The position numbers and the translations under genes are program-made. A DNA stretch of 64,000 nucleotides from an uncultured Bacilli bacterium (lineage in GTDB: Bacteria; Bacillota_I; Bacilli_A; RF39; UBA660). The stretch's first letter is position 1. Each line of letters begins with the position of its first letter. The notes beneath the pieces are model-generated. The model did not search any database. It saw only the letters and a list, made by a program, of their open reading frames with translations, and was not told the DNA's origin. The stretch is taken from NCBI GenBank assembly GCA_944372425.1, contig CALVZC010000005.1, positions 332 through 64,331 of the forward strand. Direction: 5' to 3'. This document shows, piece by piece, positions 18,346-42,211 of this stretch.

Positions 18346-18370
18346 ATATCAACCTCCTATCTATTTTTCA

Positions 18371-18931: not shown

Positions 18932-18962
18932 GGATTTATAGAGGAAAATAGGAGGTAATTCT

Positions 18963-19508
18963 ATGGAGAAAAGAAAACCAATGGATGTTACTATAGGTTC
19001 AAATATGTCTAAGTTAAGAAAGCAATTTAATTTAACTCAAAGAGAAATTTGTACAGTTGTTGGAGTTAATGCTTCAACATATAAACACTATGAATTAGGG
19101 GATAGAATGGTACCTATTAGTGTATTACAAGATTTAGCAAAGTTTTATAAAGTATCAACAAATTACTTTTTTGAAAATATGCCTGAGTTATCAGATAAAG
19201 AACAATTAGAATTATCTAACTATTCATTTAAGGTGGCTAATAATACACAAAAGTATATAGCTATAGATTTAAAAAATACTACTAAAGGATTAGATGAAAT
19301 AGAAGAAAAAACTCAAGCAAGAGCTAGGCTTAGAATTAAAAATATGAGATTAGAAAATAATAAATCTCAAAAAGATTTAGCAAAGTATTTAGAAATAGAT
19401 CTATCTACTTATAACAAATATGAAAAGGGTAGTAGAAAACTAAGTAATGAAGTAGTTAAGAAATTAGCTGAATATTACAATGTATCAGTAAGCGATATAG
19501 TTGATTAA
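18963..19508 (+). CDS. XRE-family repressor with two HTH domains
   Basis: LRKQFNLTQRE...YELGDR and RLENNKSQKDLA...YEKGSR. Confidence 0.9.
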   Translation: MEKRKPMDVTIGSNMSKLRKQFNLTQREICTVVGVNASTYKHYELGDRMVPISVLQDLAKFYKVSTNYFFENMPELSDKEQLELSNYSFKVANNTQKYIAIDLKNTTKGLDEIEEKTQARARLRIKNMRLENNKSQKDLAKYLEIDLSTYNKYEKGSRKLSNEVVKKLAEYYNVSVSDIVD

Positions 19509-19588
19509 TAAATGACATAATGACACTAGAAATGGGTATAGGATATATCCTAAGTTAATGTCATAGCGTCATATAAAGAGGTGTAATA

Positions 19589-21538
19589 ATGTTTGATATA
19601 CAAAATAGAAGATACACAGGAAGTAAATACAAATTAATGGACTGGATATCAAAGTTAATTAAGGAAAACTGTCCAAATTGTCGTTCGTTTTTTGATGTAT
19701 TTGCAGGGACTGGTTGTGTTACAGAATATATGTTTGAAAAATATGATAGGTTTATTATTAATGATTTTTTGTATTCTAATAATGTTATATATAATGGTTT
19801 CTTTTTGAACGAAGAATTTGATGAAAATAAACTATTAGATTATACAGAAAAATATAATAATCTTAAAATTAATAAAATTAAAGATAATTATGTATCTGAT
19901 AATTTTGGAAATAAATTTTTTAGTTATAATGATGCAAAAAAAATTGGATATATACGTGAAAATATTGAAAAAGAGTACAAGAAAAAAAATATAAACTTTA
20001 AAGAATATAATATTCTTGTTTCTTCACTTTTATACTCGTTTGATAAAATTGCGAATACATGTGGTCATTATGATGCATATAGGAAAATACAAAAAATAAG
20101 TGATTCATTTGAATTTAATTTAATTAATCCTAAAAAATATAATAATAAAATAGTTGAAATATATAGAAAAGATTCAAATAAGTTAGCAAGTGAAATCAAA
20201 TGTGATGTAGCATATATAGATCCTCCATATAATTCGAGACAATATAGTAGATTTTACCATGTTATGGAAAATATTGCACAATGGAAGAAACCAGAATTAT
20301 ATGGCGTTGCTATGAAACCTAAAGAGGAAAATATGTCAGAATATTGTAAGACGTCTGCTCCAATAGCATTCAATGATTTGATTCAAAAATTGGATACCAA
20401 ATATATAGTGGTTTCTTATAATAATACTTATGAATCAAAAAGTAGTTCATCAAAGAATAAAATAATATTAGAGGAAATAGAGACCATACTTTCTAATAAA
20501 GGCGATACTATAAAATTTGAAAAAAAATATAAAGCATTTACAACAGGAAAGACAGAGTTAAATGATCATAAAGAGTTTATATTTATTACTAAAGTAAAAC
20601 CTAACATAAAAAAAGAAATATCTTATCGTTCGCCATTATTTTATGTTGGAGATAAATATAAATTGATGCCAGAGATAAAAAAACATATGCCTACATATAT
20701 AAATAATTATATAGAACCTTTTGTAGGTGGAGGAAGTTCATTTTTGAATGTAAAAGCTAATCATTATTATGTTAATGATATAGATAGTGCTATAATTAGC
20801 ATTCATAAAGAATTACAAAAATATTCTAATGATAAAGATAAATTTTTTAAAAATATATTTGGTTTGATTAAAAAATATGGACTATCTTGTTCTTATAATG
20901 GTCATTTAGTTCCTAATGAATTAAAAGAACAATATAAAAAAACATATTATGCAAAATATAATAAAGACAATTATTTGAAACTAAGAAAAGACTATAATGC
21001 AAATAAAAATGATGTTTTAAAACTTTATTTGTTATTAATATATGGGTTTAATCATATGACGAGGTTTAACTCAAAAGGAGATTTTAATTTACCAGTAGGG
21101 AATGTAGATTTTAATAGTAATGTTTATAATTCATTAAATTATTATTTTGATTATATAAATAAAATAGATATAAATTATTTTAATTTGGATTATAAAGAAT
21201 TTGTAAGAGAATTAAAAATTGGCAAAAATGATTATGTATTATTAGATCCACCATATTTAATAAGTGATAGTGAATATAATAAACTATGGAATGAAAAACA
21301 TGAAATGGAATTATATGATTTTCTTGATGAATTAAATGCTAAAGGTATTAAATTTGGTATAACTAATCTTATGTGTCATAAGGGTCAAAAAAATAAATTT
21401 CTTGAAAAATGGTCAAAAAAATACAATGTATATGAAATTAATAGTAATTATATTAGTTTTAATGATAATACTGTTAAAATAAATTCAAAGGAGGTGTTTG
21501 TTACAAATTATGACAAAGAGGAGAAAACCAGAATATAA
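19589..21538 (+). CDS. fused two-domain D12-class adenine DNA methyltransferase (type IIS, FokI/AlwI-like)
   Basis: Two sets of motifs: DVFAGTG + YIDPPYN, and EPFVGGGS + LDPPY. Confidence 0.92.
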   Translation: MFDIQNRRYTGSKYKLMDWISKLIKENCPNCRSFFDVFAGTGCVTEYMFEKYDRFIINDFLYSNNVIYNGFFLNEEFDENKLLDYTEKYNNLKINKIKDNYVSDNFGNKFFSYNDAKKIGYIRENIEKEYKKKNINFKEYNILVSSLLYSFDKIANTCGHYDAYRKIQKISDSFEFNLINPKKYNNKIVEIYRKDSNKLASEIKCDVAYIDPPYNSRQYSRFYHVMENIAQWKKPELYGVAMKPKEENMSEYCKTSAPIAFNDLIQKLDTKYIVVSYNNTYESKSSSSKNKIILEEIETILSNKGDTIKFEKKYKAFTTGKTELNDHKEFIFITKVKPNIKKEISYRSPLFYVGDKYKLMPEIKKHMPTYINNYIEPFVGGGSSFLNVKANHYYVNDIDSAIISIHKELQKYSNDKDKFFKNIFGLIKKYGLSCSYNGHLVPNELKEQYKKTYYAKYNKDNYLKLRKDYNANKNDVLKLYLLLIYGFNHMTRFNSKGDFNLPVGNVDFNSNVYNSLNYYFDYINKIDINYFNLDYKEFVRELKIGKNDYVLLDPPYLISDSEYNKLWNEKHEMELYDFLDELNAKGIKFGITNLMCHKGQKNKFLEKWSKKYNVYEINSNYISFNDNTVKINSKEVFVTNYDKEEKTRI

Positions 21539-23060
21539 ACAACTTAATTTTGATACTGCTATGAGGAATCCTGAAAGATTAAAAGATGTTTTATTATTAA
21601 TTAAATCATATGAAGGAATAGAATTAAATGATAAAAATTTATTAGATATTGTTTGCGATATGTATGAAAGTGGTATTGTAAAAAGTGACGAATTTGATAT
21701 TAAAAAATTACATAATAGAGAGCAAATTCAAAAGAAAGTAATAGAAATTAATAGAACAAGAAATGGTGATGGGGGATTTCCAAAAGGTTATCAGTCAAGA
21801 TTTTGGACATACATGAGAACACTTTCCGAATTTGGTTTTGTTTATGCAAGGTATAATAAAAAACTCCTTATTGGAGATGTCGCAAAAAAATTAATTATTA
21901 ATGAGATAGATCCTCAAGAAGCATTTTCACTTCAAGCTATGAAATATAATTGGAGATCACCATATAAAAATGTTAGCAATGATTATAACTATTTTAAATT
22001 TATTATAAAAGTTTTAAAGGAACTAGATAAAAAAGACAAAAAATTAAGTTACAATCAGTTTGTAGTATCTTTATTCAGTAAAGAAGATAACGTTGAAAAA
22101 TTTTTAACAACGATTGAAAACAATTCATTTGCTACAGAAAATTCAGTTTATGAATATTTGAAAGAGGCATATGGCAAACAAAATAAATTTGGTACAGTCA
22201 TAAAAGATTATCCTGATACTGTTTTGAGAATGTTAAGAATTACTGGTTTTGTTAATATTGTTAATCAAGGTGTTTTATTAATTGAGTTTAATCATGATAG
22301 TGAAAAATTTGTAAATTATTTTTTAGAAAAAGAAGATGTTTTCACTGAAAACGAAAAAAATGTTGATATAGATTATTTTAATAAAATAAATATTATAGCA
22401 AATGATGAAATGAAACTAATAAAAACTAACAGAAATAGTAATATAGAAATTATGGATTATAATTTTATATTGAATAAGGTTGTTAGTGATTATAAATTAA
22501 ATATTGAATCGATACTAGAACATATTTCTAATATTGGAGTAAGAGGTAAAAACCTTGAATTTAAATATATAGATTATCCTTTGCAATTTGAATTTTATTT
22601 ATCAATTCTTTTATATTTAGTTTATGGTGAAACATATTCTGTTAGACCAAATTATAAGATTGATGCATATGGTATGCCTATATCTCATGCACCAGGTAAT
22701 TGCGGAGATATAGAGGTTGTTGGAAATGGTATATACTGGTTATTAGAAGTAACATTAATAAGAAATAAAGCACAACAATTGAACAATGAAACTGCTAATT
22801 TATTTAGGCATATTTCAGATCAAGAATGGGCTGAAAAATATATGTCATTAGTAGCCCCATATGTTCATGCTGATACTTATAAATTTTTCAATGCTTTAAT
22901 TGTTGACTATATTAGAGAACATGGAAAGAGTAATTTTAATGCTAAATGTTATACTGCAGATGAATTTATAAAAGAATGTACTTCTAAAAATATATTTGAT
23001 GATATGAAAAAATATACTCATGAATACAAACAAAGCTTATTAAATGCTTTAAATAGTTAA
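21498..23060 (+). CDS. AlwI-family type IIS restriction endonuclease
   Basis: N-terminal FDTAMRNPER, C-terminal P.SHAPGN.GDIE...LLEVTL, overlaps the MTase gene. Confidence 0.85.
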   Translation: MLQIMTKRRKPEYKQLNFDTAMRNPERLKDVLLLIKSYEGIELNDKNLLDIVCDMYESGIVKSDEFDIKKLHNREQIQKKVIEINRTRNGDGGFPKGYQSRFWTYMRTLSEFGFVYARYNKKLLIGDVAKKLIINEIDPQEAFSLQAMKYNWRSPYKNVSNDYNYFKFIIKVLKELDKKDKKLSYNQFVVSLFSKEDNVEKFLTTIENNSFATENSVYEYLKEAYGKQNKFGTVIKDYPDTVLRMLRITGFVNIVNQGVLLIEFNHDSEKFVNYFLEKEDVFTENEKNVDIDYFNKINIIANDEMKLIKTNRNSNIEIMDYNFILNKVVSDYKLNIESILEHISNIGVRGKNLEFKYIDYPLQFEFYLSILLYLVYGETYSVRPNYKIDAYGMPISHAPGNCGDIEVVGNGIYWLLEVTLIRNKAQQLNNETANLFRHISDQEWAEKYMSLVAPYVHADTYKFFNALIVDYIREHGKSNFNAKCYTADEFIKECTSKNIFDDMKKYTHEYKQSLLNALNS

Positions 23061-23134
23061 TATTTATGTGAATAAATAATTATTATATAAGCAGTAATAA
23101 AAAAGCATGAATATTTAGGGATTTTAAAAAATAG

Positions 23135-25289
23135 ATGCAAAGTCTGAAATATAAGGGAGGAACAATAATGGAAGTTGGTAAAAAGAAAATTTTAAATGGA
23201 TTTATTGGAGGTAATAACAGCACACAATTTGTTATACCTATTTATCAAAGAAATTATGTATGGGAAAAGAAAAATATTCTTCAATTATTAGAAGATATTG
23301 AAAAAATGATTCCTTATTATGATAATGAAGATGAAAATATTTTTTCATTTTTTTGGAAGTATTGTTTACATTGATACTTTACATAAAGGGTCATTTAGTG
23401 AATGGACCATAATAGATGGACAACAAAGATTAACAACAATATTTTTAATATTACAAGTATTAAAACAAATATATTATGAGCAAGAAAAAATAATAACAAA
23501 AAAATATTTATTGAATGATGAGGATATAATCAATACAAGTGATGAAATGGATAGGTATAGATTGAAACCTCTTGTAAGTGATGATAATGTTTATAAATTA
23601 ATATCAGATAACAAATTAGAACGTTTAACAGATTCAGAACAAAATTCAAATGTTTTAAAAGCTTATAATGTTATTAGAAAAGAGTTAGAAAAATGGAAAT
23701 CAAAGTATACGTTTGAAGAAATAATAGGTGCTATAGATAAATTTAAAGTAGTGTGGATACAATTAGATAAAAAAGAAGATCCACAACAAGTATTTGAATC
23801 AATAAATTCTACTGGAGTTAACTTGTCAGCAGCAGATTTGATTAGAAATTTTGTTTTGATGAACAAAGATAATTCAACTCAAACACACATATATAATGAA
23901 TATTGGAGTCCAATAGAATTTGATTATGTTGGTACAAAAAATTTAAAAGAATTTTTTAGATTTTATGTTTCAATTAAAGAGAAAATAACAATTCCAGAAA
24001 GAGAAGTTTACGAAAAATTCAAATTACAATATGAAAAATTGTTAGCAGAGCGTAATGAAGAAGAAATATTAAGTGAAATTTTAAATTATGCTAAATATTA
24101 CTATTATATTTCACATGATGCATCTGAAAGTAATAATCAAATTTTAGAAGAAATTCTTAAGGATTATAGAAATGCAAAATCAAATATGCCTCATATTGTG
24201 ATAATGGAAACAATGAATTTATATTTTAATAAACAAAGCATTGAAGAAAGTGACTTGTTAAATACTATAAAATTATTAACAACTTATATAGTGAGAAGAA
24301 ATATTTGTGGAATTGATACTAAATCAATTTCAAATATATTTGGTTCGATGCTTGGTAAGATACTAAAGAAATTTGATGAAGGCGAAAATTACTATAATTC
24401 TGTTTTAAAAACCTTTGTTGTTGATACAAGACTAACAAATCAGTTTATGCCAACTGATAAAACTGTCGAAGAAGAATTTAATAAATCAAATTTATATTCA
24501 AGAGAATCTACAACATTTGTATTGAAGAAAATAGAAAATAATGAATCAAGAATTCCATATTCAAATTTAAATGTCGAACATGTAATGCCTCAAACTGAAA
24601 CAAAATATTGGTCTAAATACATTAATGAAAATAGTATATATGAAGAAGTAGTTAATCGCATAGGTAATTTAACATTAGTTGATTCTAAAGATAATTCTAG
24701 TATGGGTAATAGAAATTTTGAAGCAAAAAAACAAGTATTAAATAAATCTAGACATATAAAAATGAATGAAGATATTTTAAATAAAGAAAATTGGAATGAA
24801 ACTAAGATTTTAGAAAGAAGTAAAAAATTGTCGCAAGAATTCATTAAAATATTTCCATATCCAGATATTGTTATTGATGAAACAGACGATATTTACATGC
24901 ATATAAATTTAAATGATGATTCTATCAATGATTATAAAGATTATGCATTTTCTAATCCTTTGGAAATTAGTATTGATGATAATAGCATTGATTTTAGTGG
25001 AAATTGGAGTGATGTTTTGGCTAGAATTTTAGTTGAGCTATATAGTTATGATACAGAAAGTTTTATTAAAGCATCTAAGGAGATAATAGATGAATATGGT
25101 TATAAGGGAATTCAAATAGCTAATAATCCTATAGGAATGAGAACACCTTATGAATTTATAGATGGCATGTTTGTAGAGATTAATACTAATACAATACATA
25201 AACTCTCATTAATGCAAAGGATGATTGCAAAAATGAATTATGAACCAAGAATTGTTATTACTTATATAACAAAAAATACTGAAATATAA
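23135..25289 (+). pseudogene. GmrSD-type (DUF262 + DUF1524) type IV restriction enzyme, +1 frameshift in a T6 run
   Basis: IPIYQRNYVW, FFGSIV, IIDGQQRLTT, VFESINSTG, VEHVMPQ...IGNLTL. One extra T at 23340-23345 splits the ORF. Confidence 0.88.
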
Positions 25290-25357
25290 TTATTAAAAGG
25301 GGAATGAAATCTTCTCCTTTTTTTGTTATAATATTTAACTAATAAGTTGGTGATATT

Positions 25358-26269
25358 ATGAATTATACAAATAAACAAATTAATAGAATACTACATATTC
25401 AAGACTTTTTAGGTACGGTTAATATTTTATCAAAGATATATAATGAATATGATCATAAAGAATTTATGGCTGATAATATAATTGAAAAACAATGTATATA
25501 TAAATTGTTTTGTTCTGCTATGTATAATTTAATAGATGCAATAAAAAAATCAAGTGAAATATTTGGTAATAGTAAATCATATAAATTATTCCAGCAAAAT
25601 ATTAATAAAAAATTTATAGCAGATAGAAATGAATTTTTAGAAAATGAAAATTATGAATCAAATTTATATAAAATATTGAGTCAAATAAGACATCAAAATA
25701 ATCATTTTGAAAGAGATGATAATGATGATACTATGTTATTTGAAATTTACATTGATTTTGAAATACTAGAAAAATTAAGAAAGATAACAAATAAAATATT
25801 TTATGAAATTTATAATGAGATGGATAAAAATAAAATAAAACAAATTACTTTATCTAGACCAAAAATAAAATATAATTTCGATAAATTTGATAAGAAAGTT
25901 GATTATGTAGAATTAAAATATCGCGAATCTACTAATGAAATAGATAAAATATTTGCCAAAGATAATGAAAGAGCAATTGAAATATTACGAGAATATTATA
26001 ATCCGAGCAATATTTTTGACTTAATGAGCAAAGATGAAAAAGCAATGAAAAAGTACGATTTTATTGATGAAGAGATGGAAGAACTATTTAATAAACAAGA
26101 TAAATATATTGCTGAAAATGGTAATGAATTGCAAAAAGAAACAATGAATTTATTAAAAGACTTTTTTATTAATAATGAAACAGTTACTAAAAATGAGTAT
26201 GATAAAAATATAAAACAACTTGTTGATAGGTTAAAAGAATTAAAAGAAAATTCAGAAGAAAATAACTAA
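25358..26269 (+). CDS. hypothetical helical protein with HEPN-like RxxxxH motif
   Basis: IRHQNNHF. Own TGTTATAAT promoter element upstream. Last gene of the island. Confidence 0.6.
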   Translation: MNYTNKQINRILHIQDFLGTVNILSKIYNEYDHKEFMADNIIEKQCIYKLFCSAMYNLIDAIKKSSEIFGNSKSYKLFQQNINKKFIADRNEFLENENYESNLYKILSQIRHQNNHFERDDNDDTMLFEIYIDFEILEKLRKITNKIFYEIYNEMDKNKIKQITLSRPKIKYNFDKFDKKVDYVELKYRESTNEIDKIFAKDNERAIEILREYYNPSNIFDLMSKDEKAMKKYDFIDEEMEELFNKQDKYIAENGNELQKETMNLLKDFFINNETVTKNEYDKNIKQLVDRLKELKENSEENN

Positions 26270-26519
26270 TTTTTAGGTATAGTTTTAGATACACAAATCC
26301 ATAAACTCTTATAAAATAAGGATTTTAATATTTTATAAAACTAGCCAAATTAGAACTGGATCACTCTCCTGAAGGATCCATAATGCTCATTTTTCACATT
26401 TATTTTTTTAGACTATTATTAACTGATACAGTTCTTTTTTCTAGAAAAAAAGAGTGTATGATATAAAATTTATAAAATGTGATGTATAATATTATAAAAA
26501 GATTTGGTGATGTCAATAA

Positions 26520-27170
26520 ATGAAGAATATAAAAAGAAATATTGTATATGTTGGTTATGATTCATATTACAAAGATACTCTTAAATTACGTGATACAAAA
26601 ATAAATAATATTAAACCAAATTTAATTAATATTGATACATTAGAAGAACTTGATAGAAAACAAGGATTCTTGTTGTTACTTACAATGGATGAATTATATG
26701 ATTATTTTCCTAATATAGTAGATATATTTGAACCAGATGTTTATGAAATTGATAGATATTTGAGAAAAAAGTTTAAAAATTTTGAATACGTAATTGTAAT
26801 TTCAATTGAAGAGTTTGATTATGGTCATATACCTTTTTCTAATATGTATGTATTATTTGCAAATAACTATTTCAATACAGACGAAGGTATTAATGTCTTA
26901 ATAGATAAAATATCTAAAGAATTTATATCTAAGAAAGAAAGTAAACTATCAAAAATAAAATTTAATAATATAGAAAAATTAAGAACTTTTATTAAAAAGT
27001 CTAAGAAAGATTTTTTTACAACAGAAGAAATAAAACAAAAATTAAATGTAAATGAAAAATGGATTCAAAGATATATGAAAGAAATGAATAATATTTATAA
27101 TAATATAGGCTATAATAAAAGAAAAAGGTTATGGTATGTTGTAAAAAAAACAACACGAAAAAATAAATAA
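26520..27170 (+). CDS. hypothetical protein with C-terminal DeoR/HTH_11-like helix-turn-helix
   Basis: FTTEEIKQKLNVNEKWIQRYMKEMN...Y. Confidence 0.6.
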   Translation: MKNIKRNIVYVGYDSYYKDTLKLRDTKINNIKPNLINIDTLEELDRKQGFLLLLTMDELYDYFPNIVDIFEPDVYEIDRYLRKKFKNFEYVIVISIEEFDYGHIPFSNMYVLFANNYFNTDEGINVLIDKISKEFISKKESKLSKIKFNNIEKLRTFIKKSKKDFFTTEEIKQKLNVNEKWIQRYMKEMNNIYNNIGYNKRKRLWYVVKKTTRKNK

Positions 27171-27179
27171 AAACAATGA

Positions 27180-27208
27180 AAAACGTAGAAATACGTTTTA
27201 TTTTTTTG
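27180..27208 (+). terminator. probable terminator
   Basis: AAAACGTA-gaaa-TACGTTTT followed by a T-run. Confidence 0.55.
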
Positions 27209-27283
27209 TCCATCACAAAACACTAGCCCAGCAAAAATTTTAATTAAGAGTTATAGTTATATCAAGAAAAGGAGGAATAGCAT

Positions 27284-27988
27284 ATGTTAGAGTTTGTTGA
27301 AAAACTATTAAGTTCACAAGATAACATTATAGATCAGCTAAAATTATTAAGAGAAAATAAAGATAATAAGGAGGTTAAGAAATATATGCGAGCTCTTGTT
27401 AAAAACAATAACTCGCCATATTTCAAATATTGTATTGACAAATATTATTTTAATAAAGATGTAAAGGAGGTAAAACCATCAATAAGACCATTAAGACCAC
27501 TGTATCATTTGAGAAAAACAAAAAAAATACAGAGTCTTTTAGAATCTAGAAATAATATTATTGATCAACTTAAGTTACTAAAAGAATATAAAGGTACTAA
27601 ATATGTTGATACTTATATTAAAGAATATTTAGAACTTTGGTCAAATGAGTACGAAGCTTACTGCATTCAAAAATATTACTATGATATGGATGTTAAAGAA
27701 GTAGAACCTAATGCCAAAAGTCTTAATATTACTTTATATAGAATTTCTTTTAGAGAAACAGAAAGTAAACAAGAAAAAGACAAACAAAATGGTTATGCAA
27801 AATCAATCAAGAAAAACGATAAAATAAAAATACTAGATGGTCCTTTTAAAAATCAAATCGGAATAGTAAATTCCTTTGATAGAGATAATTCTAAAATATT
27901 TGTTACAATTTCTCTTTTTGAAGAAAAATTTAATATAGAATATGATGGTAAGTTTGAAAAAATTAAGGAGGCTAAAAGTGAAAAATAG
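27284..27988 (+). CDS. protein with two ~58-aa internal repeats and a C-terminal NusG-type KOW domain
   Basis: LL.S..NIIDQLKLL.E.K...YCI.KYY...DVKEV.P occurs twice. KOW: DKIKILDGPFKNQIGIV...V.ISLF. Confidence 0.8.
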   Translation: MLEFVEKLLSSQDNIIDQLKLLRENKDNKEVKKYMRALVKNNNSPYFKYCIDKYYFNKDVKEVKPSIRPLRPLYHLRKTKKIQSLLESRNNIIDQLKLLKEYKGTKYVDTYIKEYLELWSNEYEAYCIQKYYYDMDVKEVEPNAKSLNITLYRISFRETESKQEKDKQNGYAKSIKKNDKIKILDGPFKNQIGIVNSFDRDNSKIFVTISLFEEKFNIEYDGKFEKIKEAKSEK

Positions 27989-30653
27989 AATAGAGTTACA
28001 TGCTAAAACAAAATATAGCATAGACCATGAAAGTACAATCGATATTAAAGAATTAATATTAAAGTGTGCCAGTAATGGTGAAAAAGGTGTAGCTATTGTT
28101 GATAAAGATAGCGTCCTTGGTTTTTTAAAAGCAGAGAAAATACTAAAAGAATTAAATATAAAAAATTTTAAATTAGTATATGGAATAGAGGTAAATGTTT
28201 TTATTGAAAAACTAACTTATAAAGCTGTAATTCTATTAAAGAAAAGAAATGGACTTTCCACACTATATAGAATGTTATCCCCTTACTTCACTAATAATAA
28301 ATTACTATTAGAAGATTTAATGCTTAGTAAAAAGAATTTTATAATTGGTTTAATATATGAACAAGACAATTATAATTCTAATATATTACAATATTTTAAT
28401 TATGTAGAAGTAGATGATAAAGTATCTGAAGAAGTAATTGCCAATTTAAAAAGAAAGACTTTAGTAGTTTACTCAAATAGAATTAATGCCTTATCAAAAG
28501 ATGAAGAATTAAGTAAAAAAGTTCTTTATAACAAATTACATATAAAAGAAAAAATTGATACTAGAATCTATAAAAGTACACAAGAAATTTTAAAACAGGT
28601 AAAAGATATGGAAATTGTTATTGATAACCCTAATAAAATATTTAATATGATAGAGAATTTCAACTTGTTAGAAAATAACATTTATTTACCTGTAGATGAT
28701 AATTCATATATTGATTTGTTAGTGAATACTAAACTGAATGAAAAATATAATAATGATATTCCGTTGAAAGTAAAAAAACGTATTGATGAAGAATTGAAAC
28801 TTATTAAAGAACATAATTATGAAGGATTCATTAATTTATATAAAAAAATAATTGATAAGTGCAAAGAAGAACAGGAAGAATATGTTATTTGTGATTACAT
28901 TAATTATTTATATATTGCTTATTTACTAGGAATAACACATTTTGATCCAATAAAGCATAATCTAAATTACGAACTTTTTTTTATCAATCATCCCAAAATC
29001 ACCATTAAAATATCACCAGAATTTGTTAAAAAATTAAATATTTTTATTAAAGAAGAACTAAATGTTAATATGATTAGATGTAAAGGATTGATGAGATTAA
29101 ATAGTAGTAATGTTAAAAATATAATTAGTGATTATAAGAAAAAATATAATATTAAAATCTCTACTCCGGATAAGTTACTTATAAATAAATATTTAATGAA
29201 TTATCCAATTAATAATTGGGCATTAACTCCAAAGAATTTTATATTACCTGTTGGTGTTAATATATTTGACTTATCACCCCGTGAACTTATAAAAGAAGAT
29301 GATTCATATCATAGAGTTACAAATATAGATTATAAGGATATTGAAGAAAACTTTATAACATTAGAATTAATATCAACTGATAAATTAATGCATTTAATGG
29401 AATTGAAAGACATTACTAAAGATAAGATAATTAATTGTAATTATAAAGATAGTAATATTATAAAAAATGAAGCTTTTCAAGATTATTTAGAAGCTTATCA
29501 AAAAGATATATTATTGGATGATTTATATGAAGACTGTTTAAATAGTAAAATTGATTTAATTGAAATATTTAATATAATTAATGAAATAAAGCATGAAAAA
29601 AATATTTCTAATAAAACTAAGAAAATATTGACTAAAAACAATATAGTAATAAACGACAAGAATGCTAATTTTATTTGTAGAGGCATATTAAATGAAAGAA
29701 CTAGATTAGAATATGAACTATTGTATTTTAAAAAATATTATCCATTAGAGTACTATTATGTTTTATTAAAAGATTGTCCTTTTAATGATATTATAGACAT
29801 TATAAAAAATGGTTATGAAGAGGTTAAAAATAGAATTAAAGATTATTCAAAATATAGATATGAATATAAATATTTAAAGTTAGTAGCAAAGTTATATGAA
29901 TCAAATATTAATTTTTCTATTGAAGAAAGAGAAATAGTAGAAGATTATTGTTTTGAATTAGATAAGGAAAATAAAAAAATAATTTTAATAACTAATAAGA
30001 CAAATAATGAAATTTATAAATATTTATCTAATAATTTATCTATAATAGGAACAAGACCAATAAATGGAAAAATGCCATATATGAGTAAAATAATCGCTAA
30101 ATTAATAAGAATTAATAAAGATGTAATATTGTTTGGATTAGATGGAAAAACTAATTTTTATTTAGAATATCTATTATCTGAAATAACTAGAATAGATAGA
30201 AAAGCAATTAGGCAATATTTAAATCCATGCTCTTGCTATAAGGATAGTATTTTAACAATCGATGAAGAACGTTATATTAATGGAATAAGATATTTGTTAT
30301 ATCATAATTTAACAATAAAAGATTACCATAATGTTAAAGATATTATTATTGATGATGCTAACATGATGATAGATAAATTAATTTATATGATTGAAGAGAG
30401 TGAAAGTAAAGTAATAATCATTGATAGAGTTGAATCTATAGAAGGTAATATTAGTAATACTTTAGAAAGAATAAAAGAAATTGCTAAATTAAAAAAACTT
30501 AATGTCATACTTTTTACAAATCTAAAAAAAGAATATGAAGAATCTAACAAAAAGGATATATCTTCGTTTGAAAATAATGAATTGTTGGATAAATATGTTG
30601 ATTATATAAATATTTTAGATGATAAAGAGTTATATCATATAAAGGAAAAATAA
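27978..30653 (+). CDS. degenerate PolC/DnaE-like (PHP + polymerase remnant) protein fused to a degenerate DnaB-like ATPase domain
   Basis: RIELHAKTKYS...VAIVDKDSV...YGIE, RIDEELKLI, IAYLLGITHFDP, YFKKYYPLEYY, then IIGTRPINGK, IIIDRV, IKEIAK...NVILFTNL. GTG start at 27978 follows GGAGG. Confidence 0.75.
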   Translation: MKNRIELHAKTKYSIDHESTIDIKELILKCASNGEKGVAIVDKDSVLGFLKAEKILKELNIKNFKLVYGIEVNVFIEKLTYKAVILLKKRNGLSTLYRMLSPYFTNNKLLLEDLMLSKKNFIIGLIYEQDNYNSNILQYFNYVEVDDKVSEEVIANLKRKTLVVYSNRINALSKDEELSKKVLYNKLHIKEKIDTRIYKSTQEILKQVKDMEIVIDNPNKIFNMIENFNLLENNIYLPVDDNSYIDLLVNTKLNEKYNNDIPLKVKKRIDEELKLIKEHNYEGFINLYKKIIDKCKEEQEEYVICDYINYLYIAYLLGITHFDPIKHNLNYELFFINHPKITIKISPEFVKKLNIFIKEELNVNMIRCKGLMRLNSSNVKNIISDYKKKYNIKISTPDKLLINKYLMNYPINNWALTPKNFILPVGVNIFDLSPRELIKEDDSYHRVTNIDYKDIEENFITLELISTDKLMHLMELKDITKDKIINCNYKDSNIIKNEAFQDYLEAYQKDILLDDLYEDCLNSKIDLIEIFNIINEIKHEKNISNKTKKILTKNNIVINDKNANFICRGILNERTRLEYELLYFKKYYPLEYYYVLLKDCPFNDIIDIIKNGYEEVKNRIKDYSKYRYEYKYLKLVAKLYESNINFSIEEREIVEDYCFELDKENKKIILITNKTNNEIYKYLSNNLSIIGTRPINGKMPYMSKIIAKLIRINKDVILFGLDGKTNFYLEYLLSEITRIDRKAIRQYLNPCSCYKDSILTIDEERYINGIRYLLYHNLTIKDYHNVKDIIIDDANMMIDKLIYMIEESESKVIIIDRVESIEGNISNTLERIKEIAKLKKLNVILFTNLKKEYEESNKKDISSFENNELLDKYVDYINILDDKELYHIKEK

Positions 30654-30654
30654 G

Positions 30655-31326
30655 ATGGACAAGGTTAAAGAATATATTTTAAACAATAAGATTACACTTG
30701 TTATTACTTCACCAAACTCAAAAATTTTATCTATTATTAATTTACTAAATGAATTATCAATTAAAGGAAAATATAAGACTGTTTTATTCAGTTTTAACAT
30801 TAGCTGTAATTATTATTTACAAAAATTAATATCATTTCTATCAGGTATTAACAATAGTATAATCACAAAGTATTTTTATCCATATGTAATAAATAGTAAA
30901 AAGAATAGAGATAAGATTAATCGTAATAAATTTATTGATTCATTAGAAGAAATACAGAGTAGCAATATTTTAATGAATAGTGAAAAATATGCTGTTGATA
31001 AAGATTATTTAGATTATATTCTAGATTACTCAGAAAGCAATGTGTTAATAATTGATGATTTTTATGCATTACTAGATAAGACAAAGTATAGTCTAGATGA
31101 AATATTAATAAAAGTAAAAGAGAAACAAGATATTCATTTAGTTTTATTTATAAAGACAAAATATAAAGAAAAAGTAGTAAGACAATTTGCCGAAGTAATA
31201 AGAAATTATATTTTTATAGATGGATTTAATTATGAGGAATATAAAGAGATAAATATTAATATTTTAAATAAAACATTCAAATTGCAATTAAATAAAATGA
31301 ATCAAATAATGAAGACAAACGATTAA
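30655..31326 (+). CDS. degenerate DnaB-like RecA-fold protein
   Basis: TVLFSFNIS...LQKLISFLSGI and VLIIDDF echo DnaB FSLEMS...MLSSESGI and LIIDY. No Walker A. Starts 1 bp after the previous stop. Confidence 0.6.
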   Translation: MDKVKEYILNNKITLVITSPNSKILSIINLLNELSIKGKYKTVLFSFNISCNYYLQKLISFLSGINNSIITKYFYPYVINSKKNRDKINRNKFIDSLEEIQSSNILMNSEKYAVDKDYLDYILDYSESNVLIIDDFYALLDKTKYSLDEILIKVKEKQDIHLVLFIKTKYKEKVVRQFAEVIRNYIFIDGFNYEEYKEININILNKTFKLQLNKMNQIMKTND

Positions 31327-31445
31327 GAAAATTGATAAATTTGAAAATATATTGTAAGAGTTTATATTATTAAAGAGCATTGGAGTTTTTAAGAAAAGTA
31401 AGGGCTGATATGCTATACTAAGATTAGTAAGTTAGAGGTGAGTAT

Positions 31446-32681
31446 GTGAAATTAAAAATATTAAAAGGTACTAGTGAAATAGGTGGATGCATAACAGAAA
31501 TAGTAAGTAATAAAGGAACAAGGATTATTATTGATCTAGGCGAAGATTTACCAGATGATAATGTATCAAAATGTGAAAATCCAAATATTGATGGCTTAAC
31601 TATAGGTGATAAAAAGTATGATGCAGTTTTTATTACACATAGCCATGGTGATCATATTTGTCTAATAAATTATGTGTTAGATGGTATCGATGTTTATGTT
31701 GAACCTACTTCCAAAATAATATATAGTTTATTATCTACTTTTACACATAAGAAAATAAGATTTAAAACTAAAGATATGTTTTTTAAAAAAAAGATAATAA
31801 TTAATGATGATATAATTGTGACACCATATATAGTTGATCATTCATCATATAATTCATCAATGTTATTAATTGAGGCCGATGGCAAGAAGGTACTGCACAC
31901 AGGAGATTTCAGAAATCATGGAGTTAAAGGTAAATTGTTTGTACCAACACTAAAAGAAATTGGAAATGTTGATATAATTGTAACTGAAGGAACTTCTTTA
32001 AGTAGAGGTAATGTTAAATATAAAACAGAGGAAGATATAGTTAAAGAAGCCAAAATGGTATTTTATAACTATGACCAAGTTTTTATTTTACAATCATCAA
32101 CAAATATTGATCGTATTAGAGGTTTTTATAAAGCAGCAAAAGAAACTGACAAAAATTTTATAGAAGATCTTTTTACTTCAAATATAACAGTTTCTTTAAA
32201 AAATGATTCTATTCCTAATCCTAAAACATTTAATGATGTTTATACATGGATACCAAGAAGATATCTAGACAAATCATTTAGGTTTAAGAAAAAGTATTTG
32301 TTTACTTTTTTGAAATATAGTAAGCAAAAATCTTATGTTAATAATAAATATGCATTAATGGTAAAGACATCGATGATTGAAGACATAAAAAAACTATATA
32401 ATAAAAATCATATTACTAATGCGTGTTTAGTATATTCAATGTGGGAAGGATACAAAGAAAAAGTAGAAATGAAAACCTTTTTTGAAGAGGTGAAGAAATA
32501 TGGAATTTCTGATATAATAGACATACATACCTCAGGTCACGCTGATAAAGAAACTCTTGGCTTATTAAGTTTTCTTAAAGCAAAAAAGATAATTCCTATT
32601 CATACGATTAAAAAAGAAGAATTATCCAATATTTTAGATAATGTTTATTTATTAGATGATAATGAAATATTAGATGTATAG
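31446..32681 (+). CDS. MBL-fold (RNase J-like, beta-CASP) metallo-hydrolase
   Basis: EIGG, IIDLG, THSHGDH, VDHS, HTGDFRNHG, HTSGHA, PIHT. Confidence 0.9.
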   Translation: MKLKILKGTSEIGGCITEIVSNKGTRIIIDLGEDLPDDNVSKCENPNIDGLTIGDKKYDAVFITHSHGDHICLINYVLDGIDVYVEPTSKIIYSLLSTFTHKKIRFKTKDMFFKKKIIINDDIIVTPYIVDHSSYNSSMLLIEADGKKVLHTGDFRNHGVKGKLFVPTLKEIGNVDIIVTEGTSLSRGNVKYKTEEDIVKEAKMVFYNYDQVFILQSSTNIDRIRGFYKAAKETDKNFIEDLFTSNITVSLKNDSIPNPKTFNDVYTWIPRRYLDKSFRFKKKYLFTFLKYSKQKSYVNNKYALMVKTSMIEDIKKLYNKNHITNACLVYSMWEGYKEKVEMKTFFEEVKKYGISDIIDIHTSGHADKETLGLLSFLKAKKIIPIHTIKKEELSNILDNVYLLDDNEILDV

Positions 32682-32693
32682 AAGGAGATATTT

Positions 32694-34133
32694 ATGGATA
32701 ACATAAGTAATTTAAATATTAGTGATATTGCTAAGCAAGTTATTAAAAGATATGTTGGTAAAAAAGATTATGTTGTAAGAATTAGAGTAAATAAAAAAAA
32801 TAAAAAACACAAAGTAGAAATTGTTGTATATTATGAAGGAAGAAAATCATTTGAAGTTAAAGACAATAAGTTATTGTTAGATGGAGCTTATTTCTTTACT
32901 AAAGGAAATAAAAAAATTACACATTCTATGGAGACGGAAATTGCTTGTTTAACTAAATTAGGTTTTTCATTTAAAATTGGTACCAAGATTGATTCTACTA
33001 ATCAATATTATAAAGATGGATATAGATATCGTATTTTTGTAGAACCTTCTAGTGCTAAAAAAGGATCTAAAGAATGTTATGACAATTATAAAGAAGAAAT
33101 AAAAGAAAGAATGGAAGTTATTTTAGAAGCTTTAAAAAGATATGATAATGATTTTATATATCATTATGATAATGAAACAAATATAAATAGTTTTTATACT
33201 AAAAAAGTTGATAATACTATTAATTATTTTAAATTAAATGAATTATTAAAAATAGGTATAGATAACACTGCTAAACAAAAAGGCATTAAGAAAATCAAAT
33301 TTAATGAAAAATTGGTTGGTTCCCAAACGACCTATACTGAAGAAGAATATAGAATAATAGATTCTATTATGGAAAATAGAATTAAGACATATAATTTTGG
33401 AGTTCTTTTAGAAGAAAATAAAGAAGAATATATCGATAACAATGAAAAAATATATCAACAATTACTTATGAACAAGATGTTTGATAAAAATGCAAGAGAA
33501 CAACTTTTCAAAGTGGATAATTGCCCTTTTAAAGATAGCAATGCGTATGAAATGGAATATAACTTATATGCTGCAAATAGAACTAATCGTAAACAGAAAA
33601 CAAAAAAAGGAAGAGTAGATAATATATTTATAAGAGGTAATAAGATTTTATTTACTGAATTAAAGTATGATGAAAAAGTTATTGGAGGCACAAATGGAAT
33701 TCATAAGCATTTAATTGATTTAATTAATGGATTTGAAAAAAATGATGAAGCTTTATCTGAAATATATGACTATGTATGTGATTACAATGATGTGTTAACT
33801 TACATTAATGATAAAGAAGAATATATTATTAAAAATGTGAAGAGATTTAATGACAAAGAAGTAGAAAAAGAATTTATAATTATATGTGGATATTCAAATA
33901 GTAAAAGGAATGTTGTTTATAATGAATTAGAAAGAGTTTATCCACTAACAGGAAAAAATGCTGGAGTAGAAAAATCATATAATATATTTTTAGATAATAA
34001 AAAAATCAATTTAGAGAATATGACTACTGAAGAGTTGATTTATTTACTTAAAAATAGATATCATTGTGAAACTAAGATTTTCATAGTAGATAACAATTAT
34101 ACTAAATTTGAAATATATCAAAGAAATGTGTAA
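32694..34133 (+). CDS. hypothetical protein with C-terminal PD-(D/E)XK nuclease motif
   Basis: EKIYQQ...EMEY...GRVDNIF....ILFTELK...G.NGIHKH..D. 12 bp downstream of the MBL gene. Confidence 0.65.
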   Translation: MDNISNLNISDIAKQVIKRYVGKKDYVVRIRVNKKNKKHKVEIVVYYEGRKSFEVKDNKLLLDGAYFFTKGNKKITHSMETEIACLTKLGFSFKIGTKIDSTNQYYKDGYRYRIFVEPSSAKKGSKECYDNYKEEIKERMEVILEALKRYDNDFIYHYDNETNINSFYTKKVDNTINYFKLNELLKIGIDNTAKQKGIKKIKFNEKLVGSQTTYTEEEYRIIDSIMENRIKTYNFGVLLEENKEEYIDNNEKIYQQLLMNKMFDKNAREQLFKVDNCPFKDSNAYEMEYNLYAANRTNRKQKTKKGRVDNIFIRGNKILFTELKYDEKVIGGTNGIHKHLIDLINGFEKNDEALSEIYDYVCDYNDVLTYINDKEEYIIKNVKRFNDKEVEKEFIIICGYSNSKRNVVYNELERVYPLTGKNAGVEKSYNIFLDNKKINLENMTTEELIYLLKNRYHCETKIFIVDNNYTKFEIYQRNV

Positions 34134-34271
34134 ACTATAAATAATTTTGTTTAAATAAAAAATATGATAGCAAATACAGTAATATTAAATTTTAAGTATA
34201 AATTAACAAAATTTATAATATCTTTACTTAATTTAATCATAATGATAAAATTATTAAAGGAATGGTGAATT

Positions 34272-34850
34272 ATGAAAAAATATTGGAAAATAATAATTAT
34301 TGCAGTTAGTATAATAGTTTTTTTTGCTTTACTTTTATTAATTTATTTTAAAGTTACTTTTATAGGAAAAGATGATGTAAAGAAAATAGTTATTGATAAT
34401 ATGAATGTTTCAAGCAGTGATGTTTTTTTTGAAAGCATCGAATTAGAACTTGATAAGAATTATTACGAAGTCGAAGTTTACTATAAAAATAAAGATTATG
34501 AATATAAAATAGATGCTAAAGAAGGTAAAATAATCTATACTGATTTTCAAAGTTACAACAGTGATAACAATACTAATAATAATGGAAATGGCAATGGTAA
34601 TTCAAATGGTAATGGAAATAATAATACTAATAACACAAAAATTACTTTACAAGAAGCTAGGAATATTGCTTTAGAACATGCTAATTTAGATATTAGTGTT
34701 GTTAACATAGTAAAATGTGAAAGTGAATACGATGATGGTATTTTAATTCATGAAATAGAATTTATTTATAATAATTATGAATATGATTATAAAATAGATT
34801 CTAGAACTGGAGAAATTATTAGTTTCGATAAAGATAGTATTTATAATTAA
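34272..34850 (+). CDS. PepSY-domain membrane-anchored protein
   Basis: Two PepSY repeats (YEVE...YEYKIDAKEGKII; HEIEF...YDYKIDSRTGEII) separated by an N/G-rich linker. Confidence 0.88.
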   Translation: MKKYWKIIIIAVSIIVFFALLLLIYFKVTFIGKDDVKKIVIDNMNVSSSDVFFESIELELDKNYYEVEVYYKNKDYEYKIDAKEGKIIYTDFQSYNSDNNTNNNGNGNGNSNGNGNNNTNNTKITLQEARNIALEHANLDISVVNIVKCESEYDDGILIHEIEFIYNNYEYDYKIDSRTGEIISFDKDSIYN

Positions 34851-35122
34851 CGTTTGATTTTTAATAGAAAGCTTAATTTGATTTTTAGCTTTGGTTGTTG
34901 TAATTCTATACCTAGAATAATAAAAAAATTATAAGAATATAAGAGATTAACTAATTGCCTAAAACATGAATATTTTATATACAAAATTTTTTTAACAATT
35001 TTGTTCAAAACTTAAAATTTCAATGAAAATTAAGTGAAATTTTAAGTTTTTTTTAATAGCAATGATATAATCATTTAGAATTTTCATAAAGTTTATAAAT
35101 GAAAATTTTAAAGGAGAAAAAA

Positions 35123-36597
35123 ATGTATATTTTAAAAAATGCTGTTACATCTATTTTAAGAAATAAAGGGAGAAACTTGCTAATTGGAATAATAATAATT
35201 GTTATATCTTGTTCTGTGTCAATTGCATTAGCAATAAACAATTCATCAGAAAGCCTAATTAAATTATATGAAGAAAAGTATGAAATCGAAGCTACAATAA
35301 CATTTAATAGACAGAATATGTTAGAAAATTTTGATCCAGCAAATAGTCAATCTTCTAAAGAAAATATGAACGATATGTTTTCTAATGCAAATAGTATAAC
35401 TAGCGAAGATATTGATTTATATGGTAATAGTGAATATGTTAAAAAATATTATTATACTATGGAAACAAGAGTAAATTCGACAACTATTGAGTCTGCTGAA
35501 ATTTCATCTAATGAATTTGAAATGTCAAATAATAAACCAGGAAGAGAAAATAATTTTAACAATGTAACAAATGGTGACTTTACTTTAAAAGGATATTCTT
35601 CTATCGAATCAATGACCGAATTTATAGAAGGAAACTATACAATAGTTGAAGGAGAGGTATCAGAAGATTTTAGTTCTAATAATTGTTTAATAAACCAAGA
35701 ACTTGCAACATTAAATGATATAGAAGTAGGAGATACTATTACTATTGTTGATAGTAATGATGACTCTCTTACTTATGATTTAATAGTAACTGGTATTTAT
35801 GAAGAAAAAGAAAATAGTGAAAATTCAATGAATATGTTTTCAAATTCTGTAAATATGATTATAACTAATACTAATGTATTAAATGAAATTAAAGAAAATA
35901 ATGAAAACTTAATGATTACAACAACACCTACATTTATACTAACTAGCAGCAATATAATTGAAGATTTTGAAGAAGAACTTAGAGACAAGGGATTAAATGA
36001 AAATTTATCTCTTCAAACAAACTTAGAACAACAAGAAAATGCTACTAGTACAATATCCAATGTAAAAAATTTTGCTATAACATTTTTGATATTAACATTT
36101 ATAATAGGAACAATAGTCTTACTAGTAATTAATATGATAAATATTCGTGAAAGAAGATATGAAATTGGTGTTTTAAGAACTATCGGTATGAAAAGTCAAA
36201 AGTTTGTTTACAATTTTTAAGTGAATTATTTATAGTATCTTTTATAGCTTTAATATTAGGTGCAGGATTGGGAATGACTTTAAGTGTTCCAGTTTCAAAT
36301 AGCTTATTAGAAAAAGAAATATCTTCAACTCAAGAGCAAAATAATACTATAAGACAAAATTTTGGTAAAGGACCTATTGAAAATATGATGCCTAATATTA
36401 AAGAAGATTTTAATAATATAACTTTTAGTGGAGTAGCTCAAGTACAAGCTTTTACTAGTATAGATGCTGTAGTAGATTTTAAAGTAATATTAGAATTACT
36501 TGGAATAGGAATTATTATTACGTTAATTAGTGGAACAAGCGCTATTATAAGTATTCAAAAGTTTTCTCCACTAACTATATTAAAGGAGAGATCATAA
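35123..36597 (+). pseudogene. FtsX/MacB-type ABC permease, -1 frameshift in an A-run
   Basis: ERRYEIGVLRTIGM motif. Adding one A at 36191-36194 gives GMKKSKVCLQFLSEL and joins the 109-aa ORF. This may be a sequencing error. Confidence 0.8.
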
Positions 36598-41006: not shown

Positions 41007-42158
41007 ATGTCAAATAATAAAAGAAATTTAAAAATTAAATATAGCAATATTTTCTTTATAATAGTTTTAATAATATTTATATATTTTTTATGTTCATCAA
41101 AAGTATTATTAGAAAAGGAAATTCCTAAAGTAGAGATAGAAGAGCCTAAAGTTACAGAGACGAGTTTATCATTAATAATGGTAGGGGATTGCTTAATACA
41201 TGGTGCTATTTATGATGACGCTAAAACAACAAATGGAAGTTATGACTTCTCAAAAATGTTAGAGTTAGTTAAGCCAATTATTCAAAGTTACGATTTAGCA
41301 TTCTATAATCAAGAATCAATCCTTGGTGGTGTGGAATTAGGGCTTTCAAGTTATCCAAGATTTAATGCTCCAAAAGAAGTAGGGGATGCATTTTTAGATT
41401 TAGGTTTTAATTTAGTATCACTTGCTAATAATCACACTTTAGATAAAGGTAAAGAAGGAATTTATTCATCTCTTGATTATTGGCGTAATAAAGAAAACAT
41501 AATGACTGCAGGAAGTTATTCTAGTGAAGAAAACAGAATAACTCCAAATATCATGGAAAAGAATGGAATAACATATGCACTTTTAGCTTATACAACTACA
41601 ACAAATGGTTTAAATACCTTTAAAGATGAGCCCTATCTAATAACAGTATATGATGAAGAATTAGTTAAAGCTGATATAGAAAGATTAAGAGATAAAGTTG
41701 ATTTATTAATGGTATCTATGCATTGGGGAGAAGAATATACTCACATACCAACAGAAGAACAGAAAGAAATTGCTGAGTATTTAGCAAGTTTAAATGTCGA
41801 TATTGTAATTGGACATCATCCTCACGTTGTACAACCTATTGACTTTATAGACGATACTATGGTAATATACTCACTTGGAAATTTTATTGCATCACAATAC
41901 GGAATTAACAAATTAACAGGTTTAATGGCTGGAATAACTGTAAAGAAAACTACTATTGATAATCAAATAACTATAACATTAGAAGAACCGACAGCACAGT
42001 TAGTATATGTTGATTCTAAAATAACTAGTTATAGATATGATTATAAATTATATCCTTATAATTTATTAACAGATGATATTTTAAAAAATTACAAAGAACA
42101 TTATAATAAATATATGGGAATTGTTACTAGTTTAAATAATAAAATTATACCCTTATAA
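41007..42158 (+). CDS. CapA / poly-gamma-glutamate synthesis-like metallophosphoesterase
   Basis: VGD..IH, NQES, SLANNHTLD, MHWG.EY, GHHPHVVQP, YSLGNF. Confidence 0.92.
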   Translation: MSNNKRNLKIKYSNIFFIIVLIIFIYFLCSSKVLLEKEIPKVEIEEPKVTETSLSLIMVGDCLIHGAIYDDAKTTNGSYDFSKMLELVKPIIQSYDLAFYNQESILGGVELGLSSYPRFNAPKEVGDAFLDLGFNLVSLANNHTLDKGKEGIYSSLDYWRNKENIMTAGSYSSEENRITPNIMEKNGITYALLAYTTTTNGLNTFKDEPYLITVYDEELVKADIERLRDKVDLLMVSMHWGEEYTHIPTEEQKEIAEYLASLNVDIVIGHHPHVVQPIDFIDDTMVIYSLGNFIASQYGINKLTGLMAGITVKKTTIDNQITITLEEPTAQLVYVDSKITSYRYDYKLYPYNLLTDDILKNYKEHYNKYMGIVTSLNNKIIPL

Positions 42159-42211
42159 TTTATATTGAAAAAAAAATTAAGAAATGATATATTACTAAAG
42201 TAGGTGATTAA

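Follow-up and report, generated by a model that had tools for sequence, protein, structure and literature searches.

Why would a bacterium keep a polymerase and helicase-like proteins whose active sites have been erased, and keep them directly ahead of two nucleases whose motifs are intact? The question is raised by a stretch of 64,000 nucleotides from an uncultured Bacilli bacterium (GTDB lineage Bacteria; Bacillota_I; Bacilli_A; RF39; UBA660; assembly GCA_944372425.1, contig CALVZC010000005.1, positions 332 to 64,331), hereafter the window, in which positions 26368–34143 form one discrete six-gene block of 7.8 kb with all genes on the plus strand. An initial annotation of this DNA had described dead look-alikes of NusG, PolC and DnaB followed by an RNase J-like metallo-beta-lactamase (MBL) hydrolase and a PD-(D/E)XK protein, directly beside a defense island, and had proposed that the dead copies serve as decoys or sensors and the nucleases as effectors. 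We found that the polymerase and the ATPase have lost their catalytic residues and kept their fold, that polymerase catalysis has been lost several times while fold, frame and neighbors stay, and that the block derives from a phage-type mobile-element replication module with a working mini-PolC. Our preferred reading, to which we assign a probability of about 40%, is that such a module was exapted and now acts as a pseudoenzyme-scaffolded nuclease machine in conflict or defense.

The centerpiece of the block is a pseudo-polymerase of 891 amino acids (27978–30653, +). It matched Pfam PHP and the first third of DNA_pol3_alpha, both over the cut-off, and scored 58 bits with the NCBIfam PolC and DnaE2 models, whose cut-offs are 873 and 939. 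The AlphaFold2 model, built on 21 sequences, reached a predicted local distance difference test (pLDDT) score of 85.5; its best Foldseek match was Geobacillus PolC (3f2b; E = 3.6e-35, query TM-score (TMq) 0.63), other Pol III alpha structures came next, and its C-terminal 200 residues led to the ATPase domains of DnaB and G40P. As modeled, the fold is that of PolC plus DnaB, as initially proposed. The PHP, palm, thumb and fingers fold of a C-family polymerase is common to the 891-residue protein and PolC (3f2b), whereas the DnaQ exonuclease, zinc finger, OB and clamp-binding regions of PolC are missing and a DnaB-like domain is fused at the C terminus.

The active site of this body is gone throughout its family. 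In all 15 full-length members the catalytic PDIDxNF column reads KITIKIS or a variant: the DxD columns hold T/N/S/M and K/M/T/D and the third carboxylate is Glu, whereas the active relatives, aligned sequences that keep PDID[IL][ND]F and served as the comparison set, have D, D and D. The 891-residue protein therefore lacks the three catalytic aspartates of C-family polymerases, two being replaced and the third being Glu. The PHP motif HxH reads HAK in this family, and the PHP metal ligands are likewise replaced in 15/15 members. The same 15 proteins are 50–100% identical, their frames of 886–900 amino acids are all open, as had been stressed for the roughly 890-residue frame of the window, and the PHP remnant, the fingers and the P-loop region contain many invariant residues. 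Among 1.84 billion representative sequences, only one (P0010) covered the whole fusion. In the part of the literature reached by our search, no C-family polymerase was described as catalytically dead yet maintained by selection, and a search for such an operon likewise found nothing; in the accessible portion of a 2026 survey of bacterial polymerases, inactive forms are mentioned for Y-family proteins and for PHP domains (PMC12926913).

The polymerase-like gene is tightly coupled to its neighbors. Its open frame spans 27942–30653, and the most likely start is GTG 27978, six bases after AAGGAGG (27965–27971), which gives 891 amino acids, as in the database family, and an overlap of 11 nucleotides with the preceding KOW gene. 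The gap to the following 223-codon gene is 1 nucleotide. The overlap and the gap were as first described, with the start moved to this GTG.

Both DnaB-like proteins of the block are degenerate as well. The fused C-terminal-like domain begins at about 30015, and its P-loop reads GTRPxNGK[MI], with GKM in the protein of the window, instead of ending in GKT, the Walker A threonine being replaced in 15/15 members; this copy keeps the Walker A lysine and the Walker B Asp, and the column of the catalytic Glu is variable. The separate DnaB C-terminal-like protein of 223 amino acids (30655–31326, +) has no recognizable P-loop. A profile of these small ATPase-like proteins matched DnaB C-terminal domains with E ~3e-6. 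Compared to DnaB and phage G40P (3bh0), the C-terminal RecA-like domain is matched and the N-terminal domain is missing; GKT has become GKM, GKI or GKV, or the P-loop is gone altogether, and the catalytic Glu is not conserved. With a C-terminal domain alone and no GK[TS], these proteins fall outside the DnaB helicases, and the genuine DnaB of the host is encoded elsewhere (G000:C7). The look-alikes are thus dead for PolC and DnaB, as the initial annotation had it. Because the 223-codon gene is missing, as a clean indel, from a block that is otherwise 85% identical (L003), it is dispensable.

Against that same L003 block, the ratios of nonsynonymous to synonymous substitution rates (dN/dS) of the five shared genes were, in order, 0.32, 0.26, 0.25, 0.16 and 0.33, with 0.32 for the winged-helix gene, 0.25 for the polymerase-like gene and 0.16 for the MBL gene. 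Two flanking genes, compared to the near-identical copies L001 and L002, gave 0.06–0.11. The purifying constraint on the block genes is real and looser than that on core genes. The selection suspected from the open frames is borne out by these ratios, none of which is near 1.

The last two genes encode the nucleases. The 411-residue protein (31446–32681, +) matched the Pfam MBL domain and RMMBL tail, and it carries MBL motifs 1–4 and beta-CASP motifs A, B and C of a beta-CASP nuclease. In 17/17 aligned homologs the MBL motifs (D, HxHxDH, H, D) and the beta-CASP E/H/H are intact; the invariant residues are D30, H65xH67xD69H70, H132, D154, E181, H365 and H386. The hydrolase motifs had therefore been read correctly, but not the likeness to RNase J: the RNase J model gave 56.5 bits against a cut-off of 820, and the protein has 411 residues against about 555. 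Among solved structures its closest relative is EF2904 (2az4), a hypothetical protein, followed by RNase J, and it falls in the EF2904-like group, outside the RNase J orthologs. The 479-residue protein (32694–34133, +) shows a GRVD...ELK motif; GRxD...ELK and GxxGxxxHLxD are invariant in 9/9 homologs, D309, E322 and K324 being among the invariant residues, and on this motif it is probably a PD-(D/E)XK nuclease. No Pfam match was found for it, and its profile had no match in the PDB; the nearest named atlas clusters are restriction-endonuclease-like, with scores below 0.9, and serve as leads only. A joint model of residues 170–670 of the polymerase-like protein with the MBL was uninformative, with a score of 0.01.

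Where the module came from is indicated by its relatives. Gene orders were taken from the best 20 MBL loci, which fell into two groups, and at least eight other genomes of the same bacterial family carry a related module. Two of these modules have an intact polymerase and one has none; in four the polymerase is dead, truncated or only a fragment, while the winged-helix, DnaB-like, MBL and PD-(D/E)XK proteins are mostly retained. The fullest version (L046, genome G145) runs winged-helix protein, KOW protein, DnaB-like protein of 203 residues, polymerase of 683/684 residues, a 226/230-residue protein, DnaB-like protein of 244 residues, MBL and PD-(D/E)XK protein; L049 (G109) has the same order with MBL and PD-(D/E)XK fused into 1,035 residues. 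In L041 (G094), a winged-helix protein, a repeat protein without KOW and a 593-residue polymerase with the DxD stretch deleted precede MBL and PD-(D/E)XK. L047 (G262) has PD-(D/E)XK, winged-helix protein, a 570-residue polymerase without PHP or DxD fused to a DnaB-like domain, and MBL; L044 (G234) has winged-helix protein, a 265-residue fingers fragment, DnaB-like protein and MBL; and L045 (G291) has PD-(D/E)XK, winged-helix, KOW, DnaB-like and MBL proteins, with the small polymerase absent. L043 (G007) holds the nucleases only, PD-(D/E)XK followed by an MBL that bears an N-terminal polymerase palm fragment.

The polymerases of L046 and L049 keep PDIDINF, the CPKC zinc finger and KFDILGH and match the Pfam fingers domain, from which it follows that the ancestral module had a working mini-PolC. 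Short mini-PolCs of this type (650–750 amino acids) resemble the polymerase-like protein of the window in module position and neighbors at about 25–27% identity, whereas the family of the window has lost those three motifs. The DnaB-like proteins, by comparison, are degenerate in every module, those with an intact polymerase included. Four protein types are tied together by fusions, of polymerase with DnaB-like domain (the window and L047), of a polymerase palm fragment with MBL (L043) and of MBL with PD-(D/E)XK (L049). The nucleases thus keep their linkage to the dead polymerase and DnaB-like genes across genera, a point on which the initial annotation depended, and gene fusions reinforce it.

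The operon is mobile and mosaic. L046 and L049, which lie in different genera, have in common a 6.1-kb stretch at 89% DNA identity that begins with the first gene and ends where the MBL gene starts, with unrelated flanks. Their six front proteins are 80–91% identical, the MBLs 41% and the PD-(D/E)XK parts 32%; the nuclease half has been exchanged, a contrast that is typical of effector swapping. The block of the window (26368–34143) is 98.97% identical to L001 and 98.4% to L002, with high identity beginning exactly at position 26368, and on a 32-kb contig from another study (run X10) the match begins at the same base. The right flank is only 86–93% identical to L001 and L002, and window positions 42001–62000 are 87–92% identical to the L001 genome or less. 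The block alone was considered as the exchanged unit and rejected, as the left flank (1–7717) is equally similar (98.65%), so that the exchanged stretch may exceed the block. Three other species of the genus were too divergent for an empty-site comparison.

The distribution is sporadic. The polymerase-like protein was found in 4/301 genomes of the order (E ≤ 1e-20) and the MBL in 23/301; no polymerase-like protein was detected in three other species of the genus. No match to the winged-helix profile turned up in a class-wide sample of 398 other genomes, of which 49 belong to the same family with apparently no carriers among them. A scan of metagenome contigs recovered one further close locus, L011. 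There, positions 307–4220 hold the end of another, divergent polymerase-like gene and an MBL gene, then a KOW gene and a truncated polymerase-like gene of 491 codons, an arrangement that resembles two modules in tandem.

The loss of catalytic aspartates may extend beyond these modules. Among 104 short PolC-like proteins outside the family of the window, 80 keep all three Asp, 23 lose at least one and one is gapped; these were the top matches of a profile with dead members, and the share of Asp-less proteins may be inflated because the profile included them. The losses in this set (P0019, P0039–P0044 and P0146–P0280) suggest a wider class of pseudo-polymerases.

Two small genes head the operon. 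The 216-residue protein (26520–27170, +), a sixth gene that we found to be part of the block, has a C-terminal winged helix-turn-helix (HTH) with weak matches to HTH_11 and DnaD_N over residues 151–191 and an N-terminal domain of no recognized family with an RKQGF motif; it is probably a regulator or origin-binding protein. Winged-helix homologs head the module at eight other loci, L001 and L002 included. Ahead of this gene lie its upstream region and the left end of the block (26368–26519, +), as set by the identity boundary with L001, L002 and the X10 contig, and a 21-nucleotide near-repeat (26459–26499) there is a possible operator. The 234-residue protein that follows (27284–27988, +) consists of two helical repeats of about 65 residues and a NusG-type KOW domain (Pfam KOW, E = 2.4e-5). 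Its supposed likeness to NusG shrank to the KOW domain and the C-terminal part of NusG: no NGN domain was detected, and its scores with the NCBIfam nusG and LoaP models were 29 bits (cut-off 135.7) and 24.3 (cut-off 125), which places it outside the NusG and LoaP antiterminators. The genuine nusG of the host lies at G000:C12. L041 has the repeat domain by itself, as do prophage proteins that lie upstream of a single-stranded-DNA-binding protein (SSB), and an atlas search with the N-terminal half of the KOW protein yielded no usable match.

We infer that the pseudoenzymes, by binding DNA or protein, scaffold a nuclease machine. The dead PolC-like body would keep binding primer–template or fork DNA, and the DnaB-like domains would bind single-stranded DNA, a helicase or a loader. 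Together they may deliver the beta-CASP MBL and the PD-(D/E)XK nuclease to the replication intermediates formed by incoming DNA of phages or plasmids, or alternatively to those of the cell itself with an abortive outcome, and the winged-helix and KOW proteins would control expression of the operon. AddAB and RecBCD are active nuclease complexes whose scaffold is formed by pseudo-helicase or pseudo-nuclease subunits, although the likeness would be one of logic only. This exaptation is supported by erased sites in a kept fold, intact nuclease motifs, dN/dS ratios, fusions, the sporadic distribution and the near identity of the block (98.4–99.0%) between genomes that are otherwise 87–92% alike. 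Support also came from plasmids. Full-length MBL relatives (25–30% identical) are encoded on plasmids of Proteobacteria, Butyrivibrio and Prevotella, and 3/6 of those inspected stand beside restriction, McrC or DUF262 genes, two of them also beside WYL regulators; the other three neighborhoods are ambiguous, and the remaining module genes are absent from all six. In Butyrivibrio pCY186 (L074) and a Prevotella plasmid (L075), the distant MBLs adjoin WYL-domain regulators and restriction-type genes, and the pCY186 MBL is also near extra dnaX-like and DnaA/Hda-like genes.

Several observations weigh on the other side. A sister module with an intact polymerase suits a replicon better than an immune system, and a related MBL and repeat-domain protein occur in prophage replication and recombination regions beside SSB. 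PADLOC-DB 2.0 gave no match for five of the six block proteins and a weak NsnC match for the KOW protein (E = 1.7e-4). The flanks at eight other loci are mostly housekeeping, with 2/50 open reading frames (ORFs) matching a candidate defense model, and the PD-(D/E)XK fold is read from a motif in a protein whose AlphaFold2 model was poor (pLDDT 49). That the dead replisome proteins would go further, sensing foreign replication intermediates or phage replication proteins and licensing the two nucleases as a new conflict system, is a tentative proposal that we consider doubtful.

An equally doubtful proposal is that a small integrative or satellite-like mobile element still replicates and recombines by means of this block; the winged-helix protein would mark an origin, the dead proteins serve as adaptors bringing in the host replisome, and the nucleases process ends, either for recombination-dependent replication or for mobility. 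The intact mini-PolCs of L046 and L049 favor it, as do recent transfer between genera and species and an operon head that, with a winged-helix and an antiterminator-like KOW protein, looks phage-like. The second group of MBL loci points the same way: in prophages of the same bacterial family, MBLs 33–35% identical to that of the block occur in the order repeat-domain protein, SSB, MBL, ClpP, near a D5-type primase-helicase, an HTH protein and a serine recombinase. The group covers prophage-like regions L051–L060; in L057 (2708–10308), for example, a 395-residue MBL lies between SSB and ClpP with a large serine recombinase nearby. Phage regions with SSB and an MBL-fold hydrolase (phrog_392) are alike in that a related MBL and repeat-domain protein flank SSB, but in the prophage loci of this group no homolog was seen of the block's polymerase-like, DnaB-like or PD-(D/E)XK genes. 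The G145 module is followed after 3 kb by a serine recombinase, and a sub-threshold integrase-like fragment lies just upstream of the G262 module; against a replicon, the block itself contains no recombinase, att repeats, or structural or transfer genes, no recombinase was found near the modules of G109, G291 and G234, and an iteron search found none. Nor would a replicon be expected to show DnaB-like proteins that are degenerate in all modules and a polymerase that is repeatedly lost while the rest persists. Matches among viral contigs and among phage and plasmid records were absent or distant. Viral contig scans returned nothing for the polymerase and PD-(D/E)XK families and two 27-residue matches for the MBL; in both phage and plasmid records the KOW and PD-(D/E)XK proteins were unmatched, with distant matches only for polymerase and MBL in the phage records and PolC genes only for the polymerase in the plasmid records. 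The repeat-domain, winged-helix, 226-residue, DnaB-like and PD-(D/E)XK proteins of the sister modules had no match in PHROGs.

Decoy-sensing immunity, in which dead PolC, DnaB and KOW proteins mimic the host targets of phage inhibitors and release the nucleases upon binding, is improbable. Pseudoenzymes under purifying selection and linked to nucleases would suit it, as would the sporadic, mobile distribution, and the ordinary dnaE, polC, dnaB and nusG encoded elsewhere in the genome make the block genes extra copies. The proteins, however, share only about 16% identity with PolC (structural alignment) and 13–15% with DnaB, and without the clamp-binding, OB and DnaB N-terminal parts they would be poor mimics of host surfaces. 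Variants with an active polymerase exist, and descent from a mobile-element mini-PolC, not from host genes, also counts against mimicry: intact sister polymerases beside degenerate DnaB-like partners imply that the ancestor was a working mobile-element replication module and not a mimic of host proteins, which weakens the decoy idea of the initial annotation. A conflict role through scaffolded nucleases, moreover, makes decoy sensing unnecessary.

The defense island, a further element of that idea, is indeed present at the window, but the association is not conserved. It occupies 7718–26367 between conserved stretches, and its cargo differs in three genomes that carry the block. In the window it holds a 1,595-residue Avs4-like/SMEK protein (8787–13574), a tyrosine integrase (13602–14585, −) 12 kb upstream of the block, a Mob_Pre relaxase split into two overlapping ORFs (14877–16179, −), an AAA_25 protein, an HTH protein, a D12 methylase with an AlwI endonuclease, and GmrSD. 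The L001 island carries Type ISP, PIF1 and a different GmrSD, with a 51%-identical integrase at the same relative place in that genome, and the L002 island carries Type I HsdR, YgjP and a 1,211-residue protein. The island is a separately exchanged insertion, a neighbor of the block and not its partner. An imperfect direct repeat (22/28) at the island edges (7673–7699 and 26271–26298) could represent attachment (att) sites, a reading of the letters to be set against the 5% of random windows that score equally high.

The scan of flanks at the eight other loci covered 50 of the 76 listed ORFs, the 26 from two MBL-only loci being left out. Pfam families there were mainly housekeeping (acetate kinase, SecA, QueA, RuvB, tRNA synthetase, penicillin-binding protein and ABC transporters), and a genuine PolC appeared twice. 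PADLOC (E ≤ 1e-10) matched DEDDh (3), mad3 (3) and PDC-S02 (2), and a CRISPR-associated PD_DExK model matched two ORFs, probably the same two as PDC-S02. A recurrent defense neighborhood was seen only in the close relatives of the window. In L044 (G234:C29) and L045 (G291:C2), from two genera, the housekeeping polC immediately follows the module. dnaE and polC are usually 5–6 kb apart in this bacterial family, and a 968-residue DnaE-like gene of L044 was rejected as a module part, being the housekeeping dnaE.

Such flanks, and the place directly upstream of polC in G234 and G291, would fit a host cassette for DNA repair or damage tolerance like ImuA-ImuB-DnaE2, in which an inactive RecA-superfamily protein and an inactive polymerase scaffold the repair nucleases, the MBL being an SNM1-like beta-CASP enzyme. 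The mutasome likewise pairs a C-family polymerase homolog with an inactive RecA-superfamily protein and offers with ImuB the precedent and concept of an inactive polymerase-fold scaffold (PMC12926913). In the block, by contrast, the C-family member itself is dead, two nucleases are present and the module is mobile. No Y-family domain was found in any block protein with Pfam or NCBIfam, which leaves the block without the Y-family partner of a mutasome. Transfer between genera with shuffling of modules, and presence in about 1–8% of the genomes of the order with none in the 398 others across the class by the winged-helix profile, also tell against repair, which we regard as quite improbable. Decay into a remnant without function, for which lost catalytic residues, the 223-codon gene absent from L003 and the truncated or fragmentary polymerase genes of L011, L043, L044 and L047 might speak, is very improbable given frames of 886–900 codons open in 15 members down to 50% identity, dN/dS of 0.16–0.33, many invariant residues and, as a hint only, contigs of RNA libraries that touch three block genes.

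These contigs come from one metatranscriptome library and touch the polymerase-like, MBL and 479-codon genes at ≥98% identity; DNA carry-over is possible. A promoter scan returned 92 promoter-like sites against 83.5 expected and was thus uninformative about the promoter that the initial annotation had suspected near 31410, ahead of the nuclease pair; a terminator search found none, and no Rfam family matched. The G+C content of the window is 22–29%, and its own assembly comprises 1.38 Mb in 74 contigs. In the genome collection, the named entries closest to it are metagenome assemblies of uncultured Bacilli, about 1.3 Mb each, and near-identical DNA occurs in chicken-gut metagenomes from 11 studies. 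Contigs of runs X6 and X10 show a variable spot at the right block edge, where 484 other letters replace 83 bases (34126–34210); contig joints with sides of 21–26 letters were treated as spurious. Farther right, a PepSY gene (34272–34850) contains an internal 285-nucleotide repeat, and a MacB/FtsX-type permease (35099–36597) is apparently split into ORFs of 373 and 109 residues.

The block offers a concrete, clonable case, with natural variants in which the polymerase is active, dead, truncated or absent. If it is a replicon, it would show mobile elements stripping a replisome down to adaptors. If the module acts in conflict, it would add a new sensor logic to bacterial immunity, and should the dead replisome proteins themselves be the sensors, this operon would exemplify a broader class of pseudo-PolCs that has so far gone undescribed.

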